Shown: positions 6,344 to 43,081 of the stretch, piece by piece | How the letters are laid out: each line of letters opens with the position of its first letter | Numbering within the stretch: the stretch's first letter is position 1 | From: Promethearchaeota archaeon Loki_b32 | Lineage (GTDB): Archaea > Asgardarchaeota > Lokiarchaeia > Sigyniarchaeales > SOKP01 | NCBI GenBank assembly: GCA_005223125.1 | Contig: NJBH01000014.1 | Coordinates: forward strand, 1 to 64,000 | DNA: 64,000 nucleotides | Reading direction: 5' to 3' | Position numbers and translations under genes: made by a program | The notes under the pieces: model-generated | Seen by the model: the letters and a program-made list of their open reading frames with translations, nothing else | What the model was told of the DNA's origin: nothing | Database searches by the model: none

Positions 6344-7185
6344 GCCTCATGAATAAAAATGAAGTACTACTCCTCTTAAAACAGCTGAAAGTAAACCCAA
6401 ATAAAAAGTTAGGTCAGAATTTCTTAACTGATAAAAATATAGTAAAAAAAATTATCTCAATTTCGGAAATCTCTAAAGATGATATTCTCCTTGAAATTGG
6501 ACCTGGTTTAGGAGCTTTAACAGAAGAATTGGCAACTAAAGTTAAAAAAATCTACGCAATTGAAATAGATCCTCGTCTTTATTCATATTTAAATCAGAAA
6601 TTCTCCATTTATAACAATCTTGAGATAATCCATGGAAATGTACTAGAATTAGAAATTCCCTTTCATAATAAAGTAATCTCGAACATTCCATATTCTATAA
6701 CAGGACCAATATTTGAAAAGATCTTCTTTAAAAAACAAGCCCCAATAGGCGTGTTAATTATAGAAAAAAGCATCGCTGATCGAATCTTTTTATCTTCCGA
6801 TTATAAAAATATCTCTAGGATTAGTATTGGCGTTAATACATTTATGAACCCCGTTTCTAAGTCAAATATTTCAAGAAACAGTTTTTATCCTATTCCAAAA
6901 ATTGCATTATCACTAATAAAAATTTTTCCTAAGGAAAACCTTCATCCATTTTTATTGGAAAAAGGTTCAATAGATTTTTTCTTAAAATTCATTGCTGGAA
7001 TAATGCCATATAAAAACAAAAATATCGCAAATGCTTTAAATCTTTATTTCCAAACTTTAAACAATATTCAATACACAAAAGAAGAAATTCTTACGATTTT
7101 ACATAAGATTGATTATAAGAATAATAAATTATTTAGTTTTAAAATTGAAGAATTTATTGAAATCAGTAAATTGTTTTTTTCTTGA
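6340..7185 (+). CDS. ksgA: 16S rRNA adenine dimethyltransferase KsgA/Dim1
   Basis: KKLGQNFL, LEIGPGLGALT, ISNIPYSIT. Confidence 0.95.
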   Translation: MSLMNKNEVLLLLKQLKVNPNKKLGQNFLTDKNIVKKIISISEISKDDILLEIGPGLGALTEELATKVKKIYAIEIDPRLYSYLNQKFSIYNNLEIIHGNVLELEIPFHNKVISNIPYSITGPIFEKIFFKKQAPIGVLIIEKSIADRIFLSSDYKNISRISIGVNTFMNPVSKSNISRNSFYPIPKIALSLIKIFPKENLHPFLLEKGSIDFFLKFIAGIMPYKNKNIANALNLYFQTLNNIQYTKEEILTILHKIDYKNNKLFSFKIEEFIEISKLFFS

Positions 7186-13239: not shown

Positions 13240-13836
13240 TTATGTTATATTTTTTTTCCTTAGTTTCTCTGTATAATTATTTGAATAATTCTTAATTTCA
13301 ATAGGAAACTTCTCTGGGTTTAAATATTTTTGAACCTCCCGAAATAAGTCATCAAGTGAGGCATGAGAACCCTTATCTTTAACCATCCATGCTGTCATAG
13401 TATTTAGATCAGTTTCACCATCCCATTCTATAGTGGGTATATCCTCTTTACTATGAATGCCTTTTTTGTATATAGTTTTCACTAGTTTTTCGTCAAATAA
13501 TGTATCACACGAAATCCATTTATCATTTAAATAACATTCAGCCCAAGGATGAAATGTTATAATATTTGGAGTTCCATTAAAGGCACCCCTGGTTATAACT
13601 CCTTTAAGACATTCTTTTTTTAAATGAGCAAGACGATATCTAGCAGGAATTCCTGATGCTCGTAATAGTGCAATTTGTAAAGTAGCTTTTGTTACACAAA
13701 AACCATATCGTCTTTCAAGAATTTCAGAGGCCTTAACAATATAATCAAGCTGTTGAAAAGGGAACTTTCTTCTCGATCTGATCACACTATTGCATGATGA
13801 AAACATTCTATTCGTGAGGAAAGTTATTGTCTCCAC
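13240..13836 (-). pseudogene. Transglutaminase-like protein, probably N-terminally truncated
   Basis: GFCVTKA..LLRASGIPARY, HPWAECY, WISCD (Cys-His-Asp triad); N-terminal part looks non-homologous. Confidence 0.6.
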
Positions 13837-36980: not shown

Positions 36981-37292
36981 TTAAACCTAACATTTTTTTT
37001 TATTTTTCAAAATTGTTATTATGAATTTTAATTAACTTAATAAAATATAACGAAGAAATAGTCCAATTTTTATAATCACAATAATGTAAAATGATGAGTT
37101 TTAGAAGTCAGATTTCTTTTGAATAAAATTAATTTAAGTATCAGATTAACTCTCTTAGATAATAGTTTCATATCACCTACATATTATCTAAATTCATTTA
37201 CTATTTAGAAAATTCCTAAATTTTTATATAACTGTTAACCATATTATTTAGTTAAGCAGATTTAAAGAAAGAGTATTGAGATAATAAGAAAA

Positions 37293-39284
37293 GTGGATGC
37301 CGACAAAAAACAAACAATTCTAGAAAAGCAACTTAAGACATTAAGTCAAAAGATTAGAATTGATATATTAAAGAAGCTGAAAAATGCTCAAATTCCATTA
37401 TCATTTTCAAAGCTTCAGAAAGAAGTTTTAGGACATAATCTTTCCACTGTTAATTTATCTTTTCATTTAAACACTTTAAAAAAGAGTGAGTTAATTTTTT
37501 CCTCAGAAGAAGGTTATACAATAACATTCTTAGGAGAACAAATAACAGATAAGATTTTATCTATTGAGGAAATTCTTAATAAACAAAAAAAAACTCGTAT
37601 GATCCGGACTTCAAAATATTCTAAAGAATTATTTGATATGAGCAAAATTGAGGAATATCTTGTAATAGAGGGAGATTTAGAACGTCATTTAGCCAGACAA
37701 ATTGCCCACGAAGTAGAAGAACGTCTTTCTAAAACAAATATAGATTATATGACAGCACCATTAATGCGGGAATATATTAATGGTGTTTTACTAGAAAATG
37801 GTTTAGAAGATGTTAGACACAAGTTAACTCGATTAGGAACGCCCCCTTTTGAAGTATTCCAACTATTTGATTCGAAGAATAAAGAATTAACACCGGGAGG
37901 TTTTATTAAACGGCTAGGATCTGATGTTTCTGAACAGTTTTTACTTTTAAATCTTTTACCTAAAAATCTTGCTGATTTATATCTATCTGGAGAAATTGCT
38001 CTATTGTACTTAAATTATTGGAGTTTAAGGCCATTGAGTTTGTATCTAAATACTAGTACATTAATTGATTATCTTTTTAAAAAATATACATACAATCCCC
38101 AAAATAATAGAAATTGGGCTGAAAGTAACAATTTAATTATTCATTTCATGGATCTTTTATACAAGCTAAGCGAATTTTATTCTGAAGATTTACTTCTAGG
38201 TGATTTTAATACTCACTTCCTCTCTTGTTTTGAAATACCGAAAAATAATTCATTCAATTTTGATCCTTTAACATCTCAGTTGCTCAGATTCAATACCCAC
38301 TTTAATGATGACAAATCTCACCTGTCATTAGGGTTTAATAATAAGGGAGAATTAACAGAAGATCATTCAATTCTGAATCAAACTGAGAGGCAATTTCTCA
38401 ATTCATTGAACCTCCAGTGTAGAGATCATATAAGGCCACTGCTGATTTTTAAGTGGTCAAATAATTTATCAACAGATTTGGGAACTAGTTTCTTAAAAAG
38501 TTTTATGACAGATTCTATTAATGGAGATCTCTATATTTGTAATAATAATTATTCAAATATGTTAAATTCAACTATTATTCAAATATCAAATCCTAATGAA
38601 AATAAAATAATTTTAGACAAGATCTTAATGAATTTACATACAATATCAGTAGAGGCAAATCAAAATGATTCTAAATTTCTAGAACTGGTACAAGATAAAT
38701 TGAATTCTATATTTGAATTGTTTAAATATAAAGAGAATTTAGTGCAGAAAAAATTAAATTCTCTTAAGCAATGGAATTTTTTTGTTTCAGAGATTTTTGA
38801 CCAAAAATTTGATGAAATATTTAGGGAATCTATAAAATCAATTAGTTTTTTCGGTTTGAACGAAGCTATTCTAAACCATTGCGGAATTGAACTTGATAGG
38901 ACAGAAAATAGCGAAGTTTTTTCACTTAAAGTTTTATCTTTAATGAAAAAACTAATCAAGGAAAGAAATGAAGTTGATAACAACAATTTTATTTTAAGCC
39001 AACCTCATTACGATTCTTATCTGAAAAATTCATGGCATAATGGTATCTCACAATACAAACAAAGTATAAATCAATATTCCTCAAGAATAATTCGGAGTGA
39101 ATCAAATCTTTCCATTAAGAAAAAAATCGTATTATATCAAAAATTTCAAAAAATTATTAATGGAGGGACTTTATTTATAGAAAAAATAAGCGAAGATGAA
39201 GTATCATTCCAGAAATGTTTAAATTTACTATTTAATTCCAAAATAAGAGCGATATCTTTTAGAGATTGTTTTACTAAAAAATAG
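37293..39284 (+). CDS. ArsR-type wHTH + ATP-cone + degenerate class III RNR (NrdD)-like fusion
   Basis: IRIDILKKL...LSFHLNTL..Y.IT..G (wHTH); IRTS...FD..KI...IAHEVE...TAPLMRE.IN..LLE.G...TRLG.P (ATP cone); GLNEA; no Zn finger or glycyl-radical loop. Confidence 0.8.
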   Translation: MDADKKQTILEKQLKTLSQKIRIDILKKLKNAQIPLSFSKLQKEVLGHNLSTVNLSFHLNTLKKSELIFSSEEGYTITFLGEQITDKILSIEEILNKQKKTRMIRTSKYSKELFDMSKIEEYLVIEGDLERHLARQIAHEVEERLSKTNIDYMTAPLMREYINGVLLENGLEDVRHKLTRLGTPPFEVFQLFDSKNKELTPGGFIKRLGSDVSEQFLLLNLLPKNLADLYLSGEIALLYLNYWSLRPLSLYLNTSTLIDYLFKKYTYNPQNNRNWAESNNLIIHFMDLLYKLSEFYSEDLLLGDFNTHFLSCFEIPKNNSFNFDPLTSQLLRFNTHFNDDKSHLSLGFNNKGELTEDHSILNQTERQFLNSLNLQCRDHIRPLLIFKWSNNLSTDLGTSFLKSFMTDSINGDLYICNNNYSNMLNSTIIQISNPNENKIILDKILMNLHTISVEANQNDSKFLELVQDKLNSIFELFKYKENLVQKKLNSLKQWNFFVSEIFDQKFDEIFRESIKSISFFGLNEAILNHCGIELDRTENSEVFSLKVLSLMKKLIKERNEVDNNNFILSQPHYDSYLKNSWHNGISQYKQSINQYSSRIIRSESNLSIKKKIVLYQKFQKIINGGTLFIEKISEDEVSFQKCLNLLFNSKIRAISFRDCFTKK

Positions 39285-39315
39285 AAGTAAAAGGTAAAAT
39301 GAGTATTCTTAAAAA

Positions 39316-40233
39316 TTATTGGATCATTAACTCCGCTAAGAGAGCTTTCCTCATAGGAATTCCATAATAAGTTTGTTTAAAGTAAATTGCTTTTTCTGAA
39401 CTATCAACACCAGCAGAAATTTCTGTAATTCTTGGTAAGGGATGCAATAATCTGAAATTGTCCTTTGTTCCTTTCAGGTCTTCTTGTTGAAATATGTAAA
39501 ATCCTTTAATCTTTTCGTATTCTTCTAAATCAATAAACCTTTCCTTTTGAATACGTGTCATGTAAAGAACATCTAAAATATTTAATATTTTTCTGTAATT
39601 TGTAATTTCCTTATATTTAACATGGCGCTGTTGTAGGAAATCTCTATCACGATTTCTCATTTTTAACTCTAACGGACTTATGAAGTAAATATTAATGTCA
39701 AAATTTGATAAGAGAATTGAAAGTGAATGGATTGTTCTACCATATTTTAAATCTCCCATTAATCCTATATTCAATCCATCTAAAGCCCCTAATTCTTCAG
39801 ATATAGTTAAAAGATCTAATAACGCCTGCGTTGGATGTTCTCCACTTCCAGATCCTGCGTTAATTATAGGAATTTTAGCAAATTTAGCTGCTAATGTTGC
39901 AGCTCCTTCAAGTGAATGCCTCATTACAATACAATCACTATAATTTTCTACTGTTCTTATTGTATCTGCAATACTTTCTCCTTTTTTAATCGAGGAAACA
40001 TCTCCAGAATGGAATCCAATAACACTACCTCCTAACCTATACATAGCAGATTCAAAACTAAGTCGAGTACGAGTAGATGGTTCAAAAAATAAGGTTGCTA
40101 AGATCTTCCCCTGAAGAAGATTTGAGTTTTTAATTTTAATCATTTCTTTGCCTTTCTTTAGAATGTACTCAATATCTTCTCGATCAAATTGCTTAGCACT
40201 TATGATACCTTCGCTAAATTTATCTTTGAACAT
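39316..40233 (-). CDS. pyrB: Aspartate carbamoyltransferase catalytic subunit
   Basis: FFEPSTRTRLSFE, HPTQALLD, RIQKER, HPLPR. Confidence 0.98.
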   Translation of the reverse strand: MFKDKFSEGIISAKQFDREDIEYILKKGKEMIKIKNSNLLQGKILATLFFEPSTRTRLSFESAMYRLGGSVIGFHSGDVSSIKKGESIADTIRTVENYSDCIVMRHSLEGAATLAAKFAKIPIINAGSGSGEHPTQALLDLLTISEELGALDGLNIGLMGDLKYGRTIHSLSILLSNFDINIYFISPLELKMRNRDRDFLQQRHVKYKEITNYRKILNILDVLYMTRIQKERFIDLEEYEKIKGFYIFQQEDLKGTKDNFRLLHPLPRITEISAGVDSSEKAIYFKQTYYGIPMRKALLAELMIQ

Positions 40234-40691: not shown

Positions 40692-40898
40692 ATGGTACAT
40701 AAAAGAGAAGAAAAAGAACTTATTCCATATCCAAAAAGTAGATTTTTACGTGTAAAATGTTTGAATTGTGGAAACCAACAAATCATTTTTGGCTGTTCTG
40801 CAACAGATGTAGAATGTTTAGTTTGCGGAAAAACTTTACTCCAATCCACTGGGGGTAAAGCCAGAATTTTAACTAAAATACTGGAAGTTTTATCCTAA
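40692..40898 (+). CDS. rps27e: 30S ribosomal protein S27e
   Basis: [27 protein letters not shown]. Confidence 0.97.
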
Positions 40899-41015
40899 AA
40901 AGTTAAATTTCTCCAATATTCTATTATATTTTTCATCCGGTTATATTTTAATCGTGAGAAAATTCTATCACATAATTACTCTGCTCTTTACTTATTATAT
41001 AAATAAGAAAAAAAA

Positions 41016-41822
41016 TTAATTAAATCCTTTAAAGTGTTTGAATGGACGAGGGGGCGTGCGATAGAAAGTTTCATCAGGATAACCGATAGTAAATGCACCC
41101 AATTGTTTAGCTCTTATTCGTGCTAATTTCATAATTTTAGGGTCTAATTCCATACCAACTTGGGTCCATCCATTCCAGCAGGTACCTAATCCAAGTGAAT
41201 GTGCTGCTAACCGACCATAAGTAACTATATTGGCGATATTTTGAATCCCAATTACGTTATATAGCTGTGAATATACAATAATTACATGAGGTGCATCAAA
41301 ATAAACAGGAACTTCGAATTCTTTAGCAAGGTATGCAAGTCTCTCACCATATAACCAACCCCAAGCTTTATCGTTTGTAATTGTTTCTTGAATGGTATCC
41401 GATAATATTTTCATTTGTTCTTTATCAGAAATAATCATAAAGGATTCCGATCGCATATTTCGTCCAGTTGGAGCGCATTGCATCGCAGTGAATACTTTTT
41501 GTAATAAATCACTCGATACTTTTTCTTCTTTATATTTTCTTATTGATCGATGTGCTTGAAAGAAAGGATACAAATTATCATAAGATATTATTTCTTCAGG
41601 CTTGTTTATCCCTTTAAATTCATAAATTTCGCCCATATCTTCAAAAAGAACAGCATCTTCAGGACATATAGCAATACAATGACCACATCTTATGCACATT
41701 AGGTTTGGATCTTCATATTTAAGATTTTCTCCCCCATCAACTTTAAATAAGCGTCTAGGGCATGTAGTTATGCAAATATCACATCTATTACATTTTTCAT
41801 AATCAATACCTAGTATTGGCAT
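41016..41822 (-). CDS. Nitroreductase with N-terminal 2x[4Fe-4S] ferredoxin
   Basis: Two CxxCxxCxxxCP motifs; RSIRKY, APTGRN, LGLGTCW. Confidence 0.92.
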   Translation of the reverse strand: MPILGIDYEKCNRCDICITTCPRRLFKVDGGENLKYEDPNLMCIRCGHCIAICPEDAVLFEDMGEIYEFKGINKPEEIISYDNLYPFFQAHRSIRKYKEEKVSSDLLQKVFTAMQCAPTGRNMRSESFMIISDKEQMKILSDTIQETITNDKAWGWLYGERLAYLAKEFEVPVYFDAPHVIIVYSQLYNVIGIQNIANIVTYGRLAAHSLGLGTCWNGWTQVGMELDPKIMKLARIRAKQLGAFTIGYPDETFYRTPPRPFKHFKGFN

Positions 41823-42194
41823 TTATCACTCACTTCTAAATTATTTAATAAGAATTAAATGTATTTTCTTAAATAATTATCATCTTCTAACAAAAAGAAA
41901 AAGGAAAAAAATTGTATAAATTTAAATTAAATTCATTTTTTTCTAAAAATTCCTTTGCATTTAAAAATGAGAACGCTGATTAAAGGAGTATTCCAACCAA
42001 AATTTGTACATGGGTTATTTGGTACCTTACTTGCTGGCATGCAAGTCAATGATATAATGCTCGATCGTAAAGTAATGGATGGAAATGCGAGATTGAAAAT
42101 ATAACTTAATTATTTTATTTATATGTTCGTGAAACCGCTCTTTCACGTAAATTCTTTAATATCTCAGTAACATAGAATTAATTATTAAATTCAA

Positions 42195-42533
42195 TTAATA
42201 TTCGCGCCAAGTATATTTACATTTAGTACATCTAAAAAAATGAGTACTTGGTTCGTCAGCACTCCTCATCTGTTTCTGCCAAGTTTCAGCTTCCTTATTA
42301 TTACACTTTGGACAATACTTTTTTGCTTTAGGATATACTGAAATTTTATCCTCTTCTGTGATAATTACTAAATTATTTTCTAACGCCTGTTTCTTTTTTT
42401 GAACATTAATTTCTATTTTTTTATTATCTGTTAATACTTCTCTTTGATAACCACAGTTGCACATTAAAAAGGATTTATCACTATCTATTCTCTTACGCAA
42501 CAAGTTTGAACAATCAGGGCAAAACTCAACCAT
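42195..42533 (-). CDS. tfs: Transcription factor S (TFS/RpoM)
   Basis: FCPDC, CPKC, QMRSADEP, FFRCTKC. Confidence 0.95.
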   Translation of the reverse strand: MVEFCPDCSNLLRKRIDSDKSFLMCNCGYQREVLTDNKKIEINVQKKKQALENNLVIITEEDKISVYPKAKKYCPKCNNKEAETWQKQMRSADEPSTHFFRCTKCKYTWREY

Positions 42534-42754
42534 ATTGATTTTATTCCTTTTTTTTCTGTAATTATATCCTTTAAAAATAACAATATTTAAAAAATTTTAT
42601 CATATCGATAAATACTTAGAATATATATTAAAGAGAATCCGAAAACCAATCCCAAGTTTAATATTTATCATTTTTTCTTTAAAGATCCTAATGGATATAC
42701 AATTGAAATTCAAAGGTTTTTAGATTAATAGTAGAATCTTGAAAAGAAAAGCTA

Positions 42755-43081
42755 TTATACTAAATCTAATTCTTTTTTAAGCTGATATAATTTTTGATAA
42801 TATTCGAAATTTAATGTATTCATATCTTGGACTATATCCGCATTAATTACCTTTTCTCCAGTAGCTTGGAGTTCTAGGTCTCCTATAACATTGATTAAAT
42901 CATCTTCTTTAAAGTTAAAGTCACCAATGGTTTTGAGACTAACATTTATATCACCAGTTTTATCTTCTAAAATAATATGACTATCATTAACTCTATTTTT
43001 AATATATCCAGTTACTTGGATTCGCTCATCATCTATAGTTATATCCTTAATTATTCTTTGCTTCGCATACTGAAATGACAT
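42755..43081 (-). CDS. Single OB-fold protein, RPA14/Rpa3-like
   Basis: IQVTGYI, LEDKTG, LINVIG, C-terminal helix LNFEYYQKL; divergent from PCNA. Confidence 0.65.
   Translation of the reverse strand: MSFQYAKQRIIKDITIDDERIQVTGYIKNRVNDSHIILEDKTGDINVSLKTIGDFNFKEDDLINVIGDLELQATGEKVINADIVQDMNTLNFEYYQKLYQLKKELDLV

Follow-up and report, generated by a model that had tools for sequence, protein, structure and literature searches.

Background

Ribonucleotide reductase (RNR) operons of bacteria are repressed by NrdR, a regulator that joins a Zn ribbon to an ATP cone (PMC9110341, PMC12176259). NrdR is rare in archaea and, for this reason, the control of archaeal RNR genes is largely unknown (PMC9110341). 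Here we describe a concrete candidate for such control, together with a putative operator: the protein P0001, encoded on the forward strand at positions 37293 to 39284 of contig NJBH01000014.1 from Promethearchaeota archaeon Loki_b32, of which the first 64,000 nucleotides were analysed (the window). P0001 is composed of a winged helix, an ATP cone and a body homologous to the class III reductase NrdD, from which the catalytic residues are missing.

The explanation that we favour, and consider probable though by no wide measure, is that P0001 is an NrdR-like, nucleotide-sensing pseudo-reductase which regulates RNR genes through a short box, CCGACAAAA. Literature searches found no paper on a family combining winged helix, ATP cone and dead NrdD (a Tn7 preprint mentions nrdD as an attachment site only), and the candidate operator box common to the regulator gene, nrdD and the class II RNR gene is new here.

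Results

Domain architecture of P0001

The frame of 663 codons opens with GTG and is uninterrupted, while the opposite strand is rich in stops (open reading frame list). The gene and its domains are:

37293..39284, + strand: whole gene of P0001, a 663-residue protein with winged helix, ATP cone and dead NrdD-like body (open reading frame list, translation)
37332..37556, + strand: winged helix-turn-helix, residues 14-88 (Pfam DUF7347)
37593..37862, + strand: ATP-cone fold with conserved linker, residues ~101-190 (Pfam below cut-off, fold in isolation, Foldseek)
37878..39281, + strand: ten-stranded barrel of class III RNR (NrdD) type without catalytic residues, residues 196-663 (VIA-align, Foldseek, alignment)

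An initial annotation, made from the letters of the window, had read the gene as a fusion of a winged helix, an ATP cone and a body collinear with NrdD. Pfam, structure superposition and an AlphaFold2 model of the whole chain, built on 144 relatives (mean predicted local distance difference test (pLDDT) 89.1, predicted template modelling score 0.82), all confirm this order of domains. Two of its descriptions stood in part only. The term "ArsR-like" is apt for the fold of the winged helix, which matches DUF7347 at residues 14-88 (36.8 bits, cut-off 27.6) and is modelled as four helices and a two-strand wing (H3-16, H20-31, H38-46, H55-64, E68-70, E75-77), but not for the ArsR/SmtB subfamily: matches to HTH_45, HTH_20 and ArsR/SmtB each remain under their own cut-off, and the metalloregulator profile NF033788 gives 23.1 bits where 55 are required. 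Similarly, the cone is "well-conserved" in the sense that it is the best-conserved part of the protein within the family, but it diverges from the cones of Pfam and the PDB. The Pfam score is weak in four out of five relatives and the cone is unmarked in the remaining one; a profile of the cone had no match among PDB sequences at E up to 0.1, and the whole P0001 sequence gave chance matches only.

The cone is recognised by its structure. Folded in isolation (residues 96-200, pLDDT 78), it forms a hairpin (E8-12, E15-18) followed by helices, and all Foldseek matches listed are ATP-cone proteins, namely NrdR (7P37, 9FVR, 9A6N), cone-bearing NrdB (5OLK), NrdD (9D3X, 8P28) and NrdA, with template modelling (TM) scores of 0.43-0.67 (0.56-0.67 for the top ten) and weak E-values, from 1e-3 to 0.3. 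The model thus predicts the beta-hairpin and four helices of an ATP cone, and within the whole chain this part aligns to the cone of 8P23. Residues R105, E112, F114 and I119 are conserved and match the hairpin pattern.

For the body, the Pfam family NRDD (PF13597) is matched at residues 445-644 (61.8 bits, cut-off 26.2), covering profile positions 283-492 of 562 only. In the model, the region is a ten-stranded alpha/beta barrel of the type found in RNR and pyruvate formate-lyase. VIA-align superposes it on P. copri NrdD 8P27 (Z 30.7, root-mean-square deviation 3.4 A over 435 residues) and on T4 NrdD 1H7B (Z 29.1, 2.9 A over 436), where the match ends short of the glycyl-radical domain, at chain residue 542; Foldseek relates it to class III reductases at E 3e-19. 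When the cone is added, the alignment to 8P23 extends over model residues 101-662 and residues 2-705 of that structure.

Loss of catalytic residues and purifying selection

Motifs were compared with the intact NrdD of the same genome (contig C48, 711 residues), which possesses RPFC, the CCR finger loop, EQPAEST, YYTNS, a CxxC...CxxC Zn finger and the RVTGYY loop. All motifs quoted in the initial annotation were found in P0001 and could be aligned to this protein. RPLS stands for RPFC, and the second active-site cysteine, which we take to be Cys79 of T4, is gone. The CCR finger loop with the thiyl-radical cysteine (presumably Cys290 in T4 and Cys330 in T. maritima) is deleted or divergent. SQPHYDS aligns with EQPAEST and QYSSR with YYTNS, GLNEA is retained, and the C-terminus falls short of both the Zn finger and the glycyl-radical loop. 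Against the NrdD equivalog TIGR02487, P0001 scores 49.4 bits, the cut-off being 326.35.

These losses are common to the relatives. The catalytic cysteine pair, carried by the genome's own NrdD and by P0249, is absent from all 53 core relatives and from every winged-helix-bearing member of the wider family inspected, so that orthologues keeping the catalytic cysteine and the glycyl-radical domain, as expected from a truncation confined to this locus, were not encountered. At the RPxC cysteine nearly all core relatives have S, G or A, and none of them has CxxC...CxxC or RxxG[YF]. Judging from its motifs, P0001 is almost certainly catalytically dead.

Comparison with a 97% identical metagenomic copy (locus L262) gives a ratio of nonsynonymous to synonymous substitution rates (dN/dS) of 0.19 for the whole gene. 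Of more than 80 genomes, nearly all keep the frame open, and the order of domains is kept across Asgard and Thermoproteota lineages. The argument of the initial annotation that an intact frame speaks against simple decay is strengthened by these values, and the comparison by domain that it had suggested again indicates purifying selection: dN/dS is lowest in cone and linker (0.065) and amounts to 0.26 in the winged helix and 0.30 in the N-terminal half of the body, while the C-terminal third of the body shows no amino-acid change at all. Within the core family, the cone averages 68% pairwise identity, the winged helix 58% and the body 37-43%; identity to the wide family is 44% for the cone and 17-18% for the body. 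From these domain-wise values, sensor and DNA-binding head appear to be the constrained parts. On the sequences compared, the gene is under purifying selection that is strongest on the cone, and, given the dN/dS of 0.19 and the lack of any inspected winged-helix relative with both catalytic cysteines, its loss of catalysis is no local decay or accident.

The synonymous rate (dS) against the L262 copy is uneven along positions 37293-40233: it falls from 0.17-0.20 in the first third of the gene to 0.06 in the middle and 0.008 in the last third, and is 0.016 in the neighbouring pyrB. This pattern suggests a recombination breakpoint within the gene.

A box common to the putative regulator gene and RNR genes

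The 5' end of the gene and the DNA before it contain the following elements:

37170..37189, + strand: upstream element ATATCACC-N4-ATATTATC, two ATATYAYC copies whose starts are 12 nt apart (orthologue conservation)
37221..37230, + strand: TATA box TTTTTATATA, preceded by a conserved CCTAAA (kept in nearly all orthologues shown)
37241..37259, + strand: conserved block ATATTATTTAGTTAAGCAG around the inferred transcription start (orthologue alignment; position inferred from the TATA box)
37300..37308, + strand: the box CCGACAAAA, a candidate operator overlapping codons 3-6 (orthologue conservation, codon constraint)

The non-coding DNA upstream of the gene is conserved among orthologues, with ATATCACC-N4-ATATTATC followed by CCTAAATTTTTATATA and then ATATTATTTAGTTAAGCAG; the first of these elements is kept in orthologues that are 72-87% identical over the first 120 residues and in genera g5 and g8. 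The first 30 nt of the coding sequence contain CGACAAA in 67 of 76 orthologues. Here the Asp codon of a D-K pair is GAC in all 69 orthologues that have the pair, compared with 13.5% of Asp codons genome-wide; in 67 of these orthologues the codon before it is NCC, even though the encoded residue varies between S, A, T and P (such codons are NCC in ~10% of cases genome-wide). Since these codons are fixed while the residue varies, the constraint acts on the nucleotides and not on the peptide. The box is associated with the regulator gene in every family genus inspected, even where its position or orientation has shifted: four orthologues have it in the leader, immediately before an ATG, and in genus g3 it is reversed and upstream of the TATA box. 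Genus g2 retains regulator and box even where nrdD was not found.

In the 5' leader of true nrdD, the same CCGACAAAA is the only stretch that does not vary across the family, and its flanks diverge (in the leaders shown, except for one excluded locus and one single-base variant). The g3 leader contains two tandem copies, and in the window's own genus an ATATTACC abuts the box. In 43 orthologues of the regulator gene, TTTTATAT and CGACAAA are 79 nt apart, and in most the spacing is 77-80 nt; for nrdD it is 72 nt in 12 to 16 of 26 cases, according to which TATA pattern is applied. In both genes, the box would thereby lie ~45-50 nt downstream of the transcription start inferred from the TATA box.

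Of 29 orthologues of the class II RNR gene, 15 likewise have the box or its one-base variant CCGATAAAA upstream, at ~-36 and at ~-250 to -262. In the genome of the window this gene (contig C23; loci L012, L232) is preceded by CCGAC-N7-CGACAAAAAA at ~-250 and GCCGATAAAA at -36, and in two g2 genomes the box before it is reversed. Upstream of orc1/cdc6 the box or CCGATAAAA was found in 13 of 30 orthologues, at ~-200 or ~-90, in one genome as the palindrome TTGTCGGAATCGACAA. As a background, 2.7% of the genes of at least 200 codons in the genome have the box pattern within -400 to +30. Orthologues are not independent of each other, and these counts describe conservation rather than statistical tests. 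Genome-wide, CCGACAAAA is present 21 times in non-coding DNA, compared with a mean of 2.8 (standard deviation 2.3, maximum 12) in 150 composition-matched shuffles, and 12 times in coding DNA, where shuffles contain 21.5 on average. In family f7, where the winged-helix form was not found, nrdD has no such leader or box. Another copy precedes an XPD-like helicase gene on C38; this copy has no close orthologue.

Several single occurrences are recorded here as observations in their own right. The copy at C61:105467 (-), 198 nt upstream of orc1/cdc6 (C61:104075-105277), is flanked by direct repeats TTCTGAAAAAC and could be a replication-origin or regulatory element. Copies in repeated non-coding elements, some of them near contig ends, are located at C24:53094, C28:17280, C36:191299, C56:133 and C58:126182, and further ones at C18:742/2032/4705 and C65:20730/21043/21140; one such copy is followed by a 565-residue open reading frame without a Pfam family. 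The elements carrying them may be mobile or repeat elements. No CGACAAA or CCGACA was found near the regulator gene in the loci from Jordarchaeia, Baldrarchaeia, Bathyarchaeia and Nitrososphaerales. The Nitrososphaerales locus L098 contains a 12-mer, AAACCCTAAAAC, twice before or overlapping the regulator start (6958-7000) and a third time, antisense, in the 5' part of pyrB (13433-13444); it was not found before the RNR gene of that locus. Three exact copies in 16 kb are unlikely to have arisen by chance.

Predicted dimer of the body

For two copies of residues 196-663 a homodimer is predicted with an interaction prediction score from aligned errors (ipSAE) of 0.77, the best control reaching 0.00. 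The mark applied to this score is reached by 20 of 30 proteins solved as same-chain pairs and by one of 23 solved as single chains; because solved NrdD dimers exist, a pass may merely reflect likeness to them. At least 96% of contacts recur between runs, the partner pLDDT is at least 81, and helices 198-213 and 275-295 are placed at the interface. Residues 208-223 (LGSDVSEQFLLLNLLP), the best-conserved stretch of the body, presumably correspond to the helix bundle through which NrdD dimerises and in which its specificity site lies. An NrdD-type dimer surface is thus predicted to be kept in P0001.

Other reductase genes in the genome

The check for a separate, intact RNR that had been suggested with the initial annotation gave positive results. 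Besides nrdD on C48, the genome encodes an NrdG activase on C55 (158.7 bits), the sole NrdG above cut-off, in agreement with the earlier remark that none lies near P0001. A class II (B12-type) RNR with its own ATP cone, RNR_Alpha and RNR-II insertion domain is located on C23 at ~40780-43030 (-); it was detected through the ATP cone (PF03477) and PF17975, as PF02867 scores 23.5 bits, just under its cut-off. NrdR (TIGR00244) was matched nowhere in the genome.

NrdD-like proteins are three in number, the third being a second dead paralogue of 602 residues (C39:51198-53006; locus L002:1189-2997) with an ATP cone and no winged helix. It has RPFS for RPFC and is without finger-loop cysteine, Zn finger and glycyl-radical loop. 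Since its N-terminal half is ~50% identical to true NrdD and it recurs in many genomes of the GTDB family, this paralogue is, on sequence comparison, a separate and younger loss of function, independent of P0001.

In two g2 genomes, G159 and G019, no true NrdD was found. In G159 (99% complete) a class II RNR was not found either (PF13597, PF02867, PF17975), and the dead regulator is its sole RNR-like gene found. This apparent lack may reflect an assembly gap or a reliance on salvage.

Distribution of the family

Relatives of P0001 are encoded in at least 556 species genomes; in a representative library they form 676 clusters at E up to 1e-3, of which 124 score below 1e-30. The survey of the architecture proposed in the initial annotation, conducted on a sample of 200 genomes of the phylum, traced the dead winged-helix form across Asgard families, and it is also known from Bathyarchaeia and Nitrososphaerales. 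The truncated form of ~660 residues is present in 38 of the 40 sampled genomes of the window's own GTDB family (f1), and six other Asgard families have winged-helix-bearing forms of ~770 residues (17 of 20 genomes). In family f7 the only form is NrdD without winged helix (34 of 43 genomes), and several Asgard families in the sample are without any match. Longer forms of ~700-850 residues carry names from Jord/Freyarchaeia, Baldrarchaeia, Bathyarchaeia and Nitrososphaerales; many of these retain a C-terminal Zn finger and a degenerate remnant of the glycyl-radical loop, yet lack the finger-loop cysteine.

Some close relatives (P0010, P0017, P0027, P0033 and others, 57-71% identical to P0001) are labelled Hod-, Odin-, Hermod- or Thorarchaeota by NCBI. 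Because only f1 genomes in the sampled phylum score far below E 1e-55, the relatives of 55-75% identity appear, despite these labels, to belong to the single family f1, and the NCBI phylum labels on these metagenome-assembled records look unreliable.

Gene neighbourhood

39316..40233, - strand: pyrB (aspartate carbamoyltransferase), convergent neighbour (Pfam OTCace_N and OTCace)

The position of the gene, described at the outset as convergent to pyrB and close to replication genes, is as stated: pyrB follows after 32 nt, and PCNA, TFS and an OB-fold gene are situated within 5 kb downstream. In the family loci, the gene lies between the S12-S7 ribosomal protein genes and convergent pyrB, and pyrB was counted in 78 of 80 such loci, L44e in 75 and S7 in 71. 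The relative from Baldrarchaeia likewise has a convergent pyrB in an otherwise different context. In Bathyarchaeia the order is regulator, NRDD gene, convergent pyrB; in Nitrososphaerales it is regulator, intein-bearing class II RNR gene, convergent pyrB; and in Asgard family f9 the regulator gene adjoins true nrdD, in convergent orientation. Three further loci, one of them from Jordarchaeia, have neither an RNR gene nor pyrB nearby. The simplest reading of these gene orders would be that regulator, RNR gene and convergent pyrB stood in this order ancestrally and that the RNR gene moved away in the lineage of the window. As such an arrangement would explain the adjacency of pyrB, pyrB need not be a target.

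A side observation concerns f7, where a small glutaredoxin/thioredoxin-like gene (MDPDFEF..LLE.QVF.ASTPSI) directly precedes nrdD, with no leader, in 13 of the 14 loci fetched (L129-L140, L142). Its product is probably the reductant of NrdD, encoded in the same operon.

Discussion

A probable regulator derived from a reductase

P0001 would be a transcription regulator derived from a pseudoenzyme, with a class III barrel that has been stripped of its radical chemistry and that could serve as a dimerising scaffold, perhaps still binding effectors. The N-terminal ATP cone, going by its modelled fold, would read the ATP/dATP state, and the winged helix would bind DNA via the candidate box CCGACAAAA. 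The most likely targets would be nrdD, the class II RNR gene and the regulator's own gene, with orc1/cdc6 added in part of the family. Because a box ~45-50 nt past the inferred start fits such a mode of action, regulation may be a repression in which RNA polymerase is blocked or stalled when deoxynucleoside triphosphates (dNTPs) are plentiful. That P0001 is a DNA-binding regulator of some kind we hold to be likely; whether CCGACAAAA is its operator is, on the sequence comparisons, evenly poised. The proposal of the initial annotation, a pseudoenzyme reused as a regulator analogous to NrdR, is supported by the RNR-gene neighbours and the common box as far as sequence analysis goes.

A further-reaching version would make P0001 a master switch coupling dNTP supply to the initiation of replication, acting on both RNR classes, its own gene and orc1/cdc6 via one box and sensing ATP/dATP by the cone and individual dNTPs by a retained NrdD specificity site at the dimer interface. 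If true, this would be a two-sensor regulator built from the enzyme that it controls, but we regard it as doubtful.

Several observations weigh against the proposed regulation of RNR genes through the box. The cone (residues 103-174) reaches 20.5 bits with PF03477, under the gathering cut-off of 25.8, and its KR-type phosphate-binding motif reads RTS. The box is found in repeated non-coding elements and before the unrelated glnA and TFB; a search upstream of nrdG (in an operon), the C39 paralogue, pyrB and L44e gave no copy. In four other Asgard genomes no convincing motif was common to the upstream regions of regulator and nrdD (one 9-mer in one of four pairs), nrdD lying there within an operon whose promoter was outside the comparison. 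Outside the core family three of seven relatives neighbour an RNR gene and the other four do not, and the transcription starts are inferred from TATA boxes only.

Some of these points would be expected if P0001 were indeed a nucleotide-sensing, DNA-binding regulator but another factor, such as Orc1/Cdc6 or a general regulator, read CCGACAAAA. The operator of P0001 would then perhaps be ATATCACC-N4-ATATTATC, the second conserved element upstream of the TATA box, and P0001 might act on pyrimidine or other genes, as the adjacency of pyrB in nearly all family loci and in Baldrarchaeia would suggest; the copies before orc1/cdc6, glnA and TFB and in the repeats likewise fit a different reader. The box is nevertheless tied to the regulator gene in every genus inspected and to both RNR genes, and neither a box nor any common element was seen at pyrB itself, and we judge this arrangement unlikely. 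Even if the box is recognised as such, it might act as a leader element on translation or mRNA stability, with P0001 an RNA-binding regulator or unrelated to it. It is indeed mostly in sense orientation within the transcribed leader, overlaps the translation start of the regulator gene, and abuts start codons at some of its other copies. The reversed box upstream of the TATA box in g3 and the reversed boxes before the class II gene in two g2 genomes favour a site acting at the level of DNA; Rfam, searched at permissive thresholds, has no family in either the nrdD or the regulator-gene leader, and the nrdD leader alignment shows no conserved sequence on either side of the box that could pair with it. 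A role in RNA is thus highly improbable.

The dimer prediction raises the question of partners other than DNA. P0001 could pair with or titrate active NrdD or the second dead paralogue as an allosteric subunit, the winged helix being a protein-binding module; the predicted NrdD-type surface, with the best-conserved helix of the body (208-223) in it, and the presence of three NrdD-like proteins in one genome are compatible with this. The body is only ~20-25% identical to active NrdD, however, the winged helix is 58% identical in the family with nearly invariant putative recognition-helix residues, and two genomes of genus g2 that are 98-99% complete and in which no NrdD was found keep the P0001 gene. 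Such a function in protein contacts therefore seems improbable. Finally, to the view that P0001 is a functionless or decaying remnant of a duplicated nrdD we give almost no credence: no catalytic element survives, and in the family the body is conserved far less than true NrdD (40-75% versus 58-92% identity, mostly 80-92%), but an intact frame in nearly all of the genomes, the low dN/dS and a strongly conserved domain order and promoter are not what decay would leave.

Asgard archaea are the closest known relatives of eukaryotes. The P0001 family occurs in part of them and in Bathyarchaeia and Nitrososphaerales, and it would represent an enzyme converted into a regulator of its own pathway. 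Many of its members bear the label "anaerobic ribonucleoside-triphosphate reductase" from the pipelines of NCBI and JGI, and with labels of active enzymes metabolic reconstructions could credit an organism with an RNR that it lacks or count one too many.

Comparison with known systems

The nearest architectural counterparts of P0001 are the longer proteins with winged helix, ATP cone and NrdD-like body, which are only 19-28% identical to it. They have the same three-part architecture, have likewise lost the finger-loop cysteine and have a convergent pyrB adjacent or near; many differ from P0001 in keeping the Zn finger and a remnant of the glycyl-radical loop, and some are encoded directly beside a working RNR gene, unlike P0001.

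With class III NrdD (8P23/8P27, S. thermophilus 9D3X, T4 1H7B, T. maritima 4COI) P0001 has in common an ATP cone followed by the same barrel (Z 26-31), the GLNEA block and, by prediction, the dimer surface. It differs in its additional winged helix and in being without the thiyl-radical cysteine, the second cysteine, the Zn finger, the glycyl-radical loop and an adjacent activase. P0001 is homologous to class III NrdD and is not an enzyme of that family.

The likeness to NrdR is of another kind. Both fuse a DNA-binding domain to an ATP cone, and the isolated cone model of P0001 has the NrdR structures 7P37 and 9FVR among its top matches; the candidate targets of P0001 are RNR genes and its own gene, and the candidate sites lie near or downstream of the transcription start. 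The architecture of NrdR (TIGR00244), an N-terminal Zn ribbon and an ATP cone in ~150 residues, is not that of P0001, which has a winged helix instead of the ribbon and, in addition, a dead NrdD barrel of 470 residues. Moreover, NrdR boxes are paired and palindromic, while the candidate CCGACAAAA is single or in tandem direct copies in the cases seen. P0001 would be functionally closest to NrdR, without being a member of the NrdR family.

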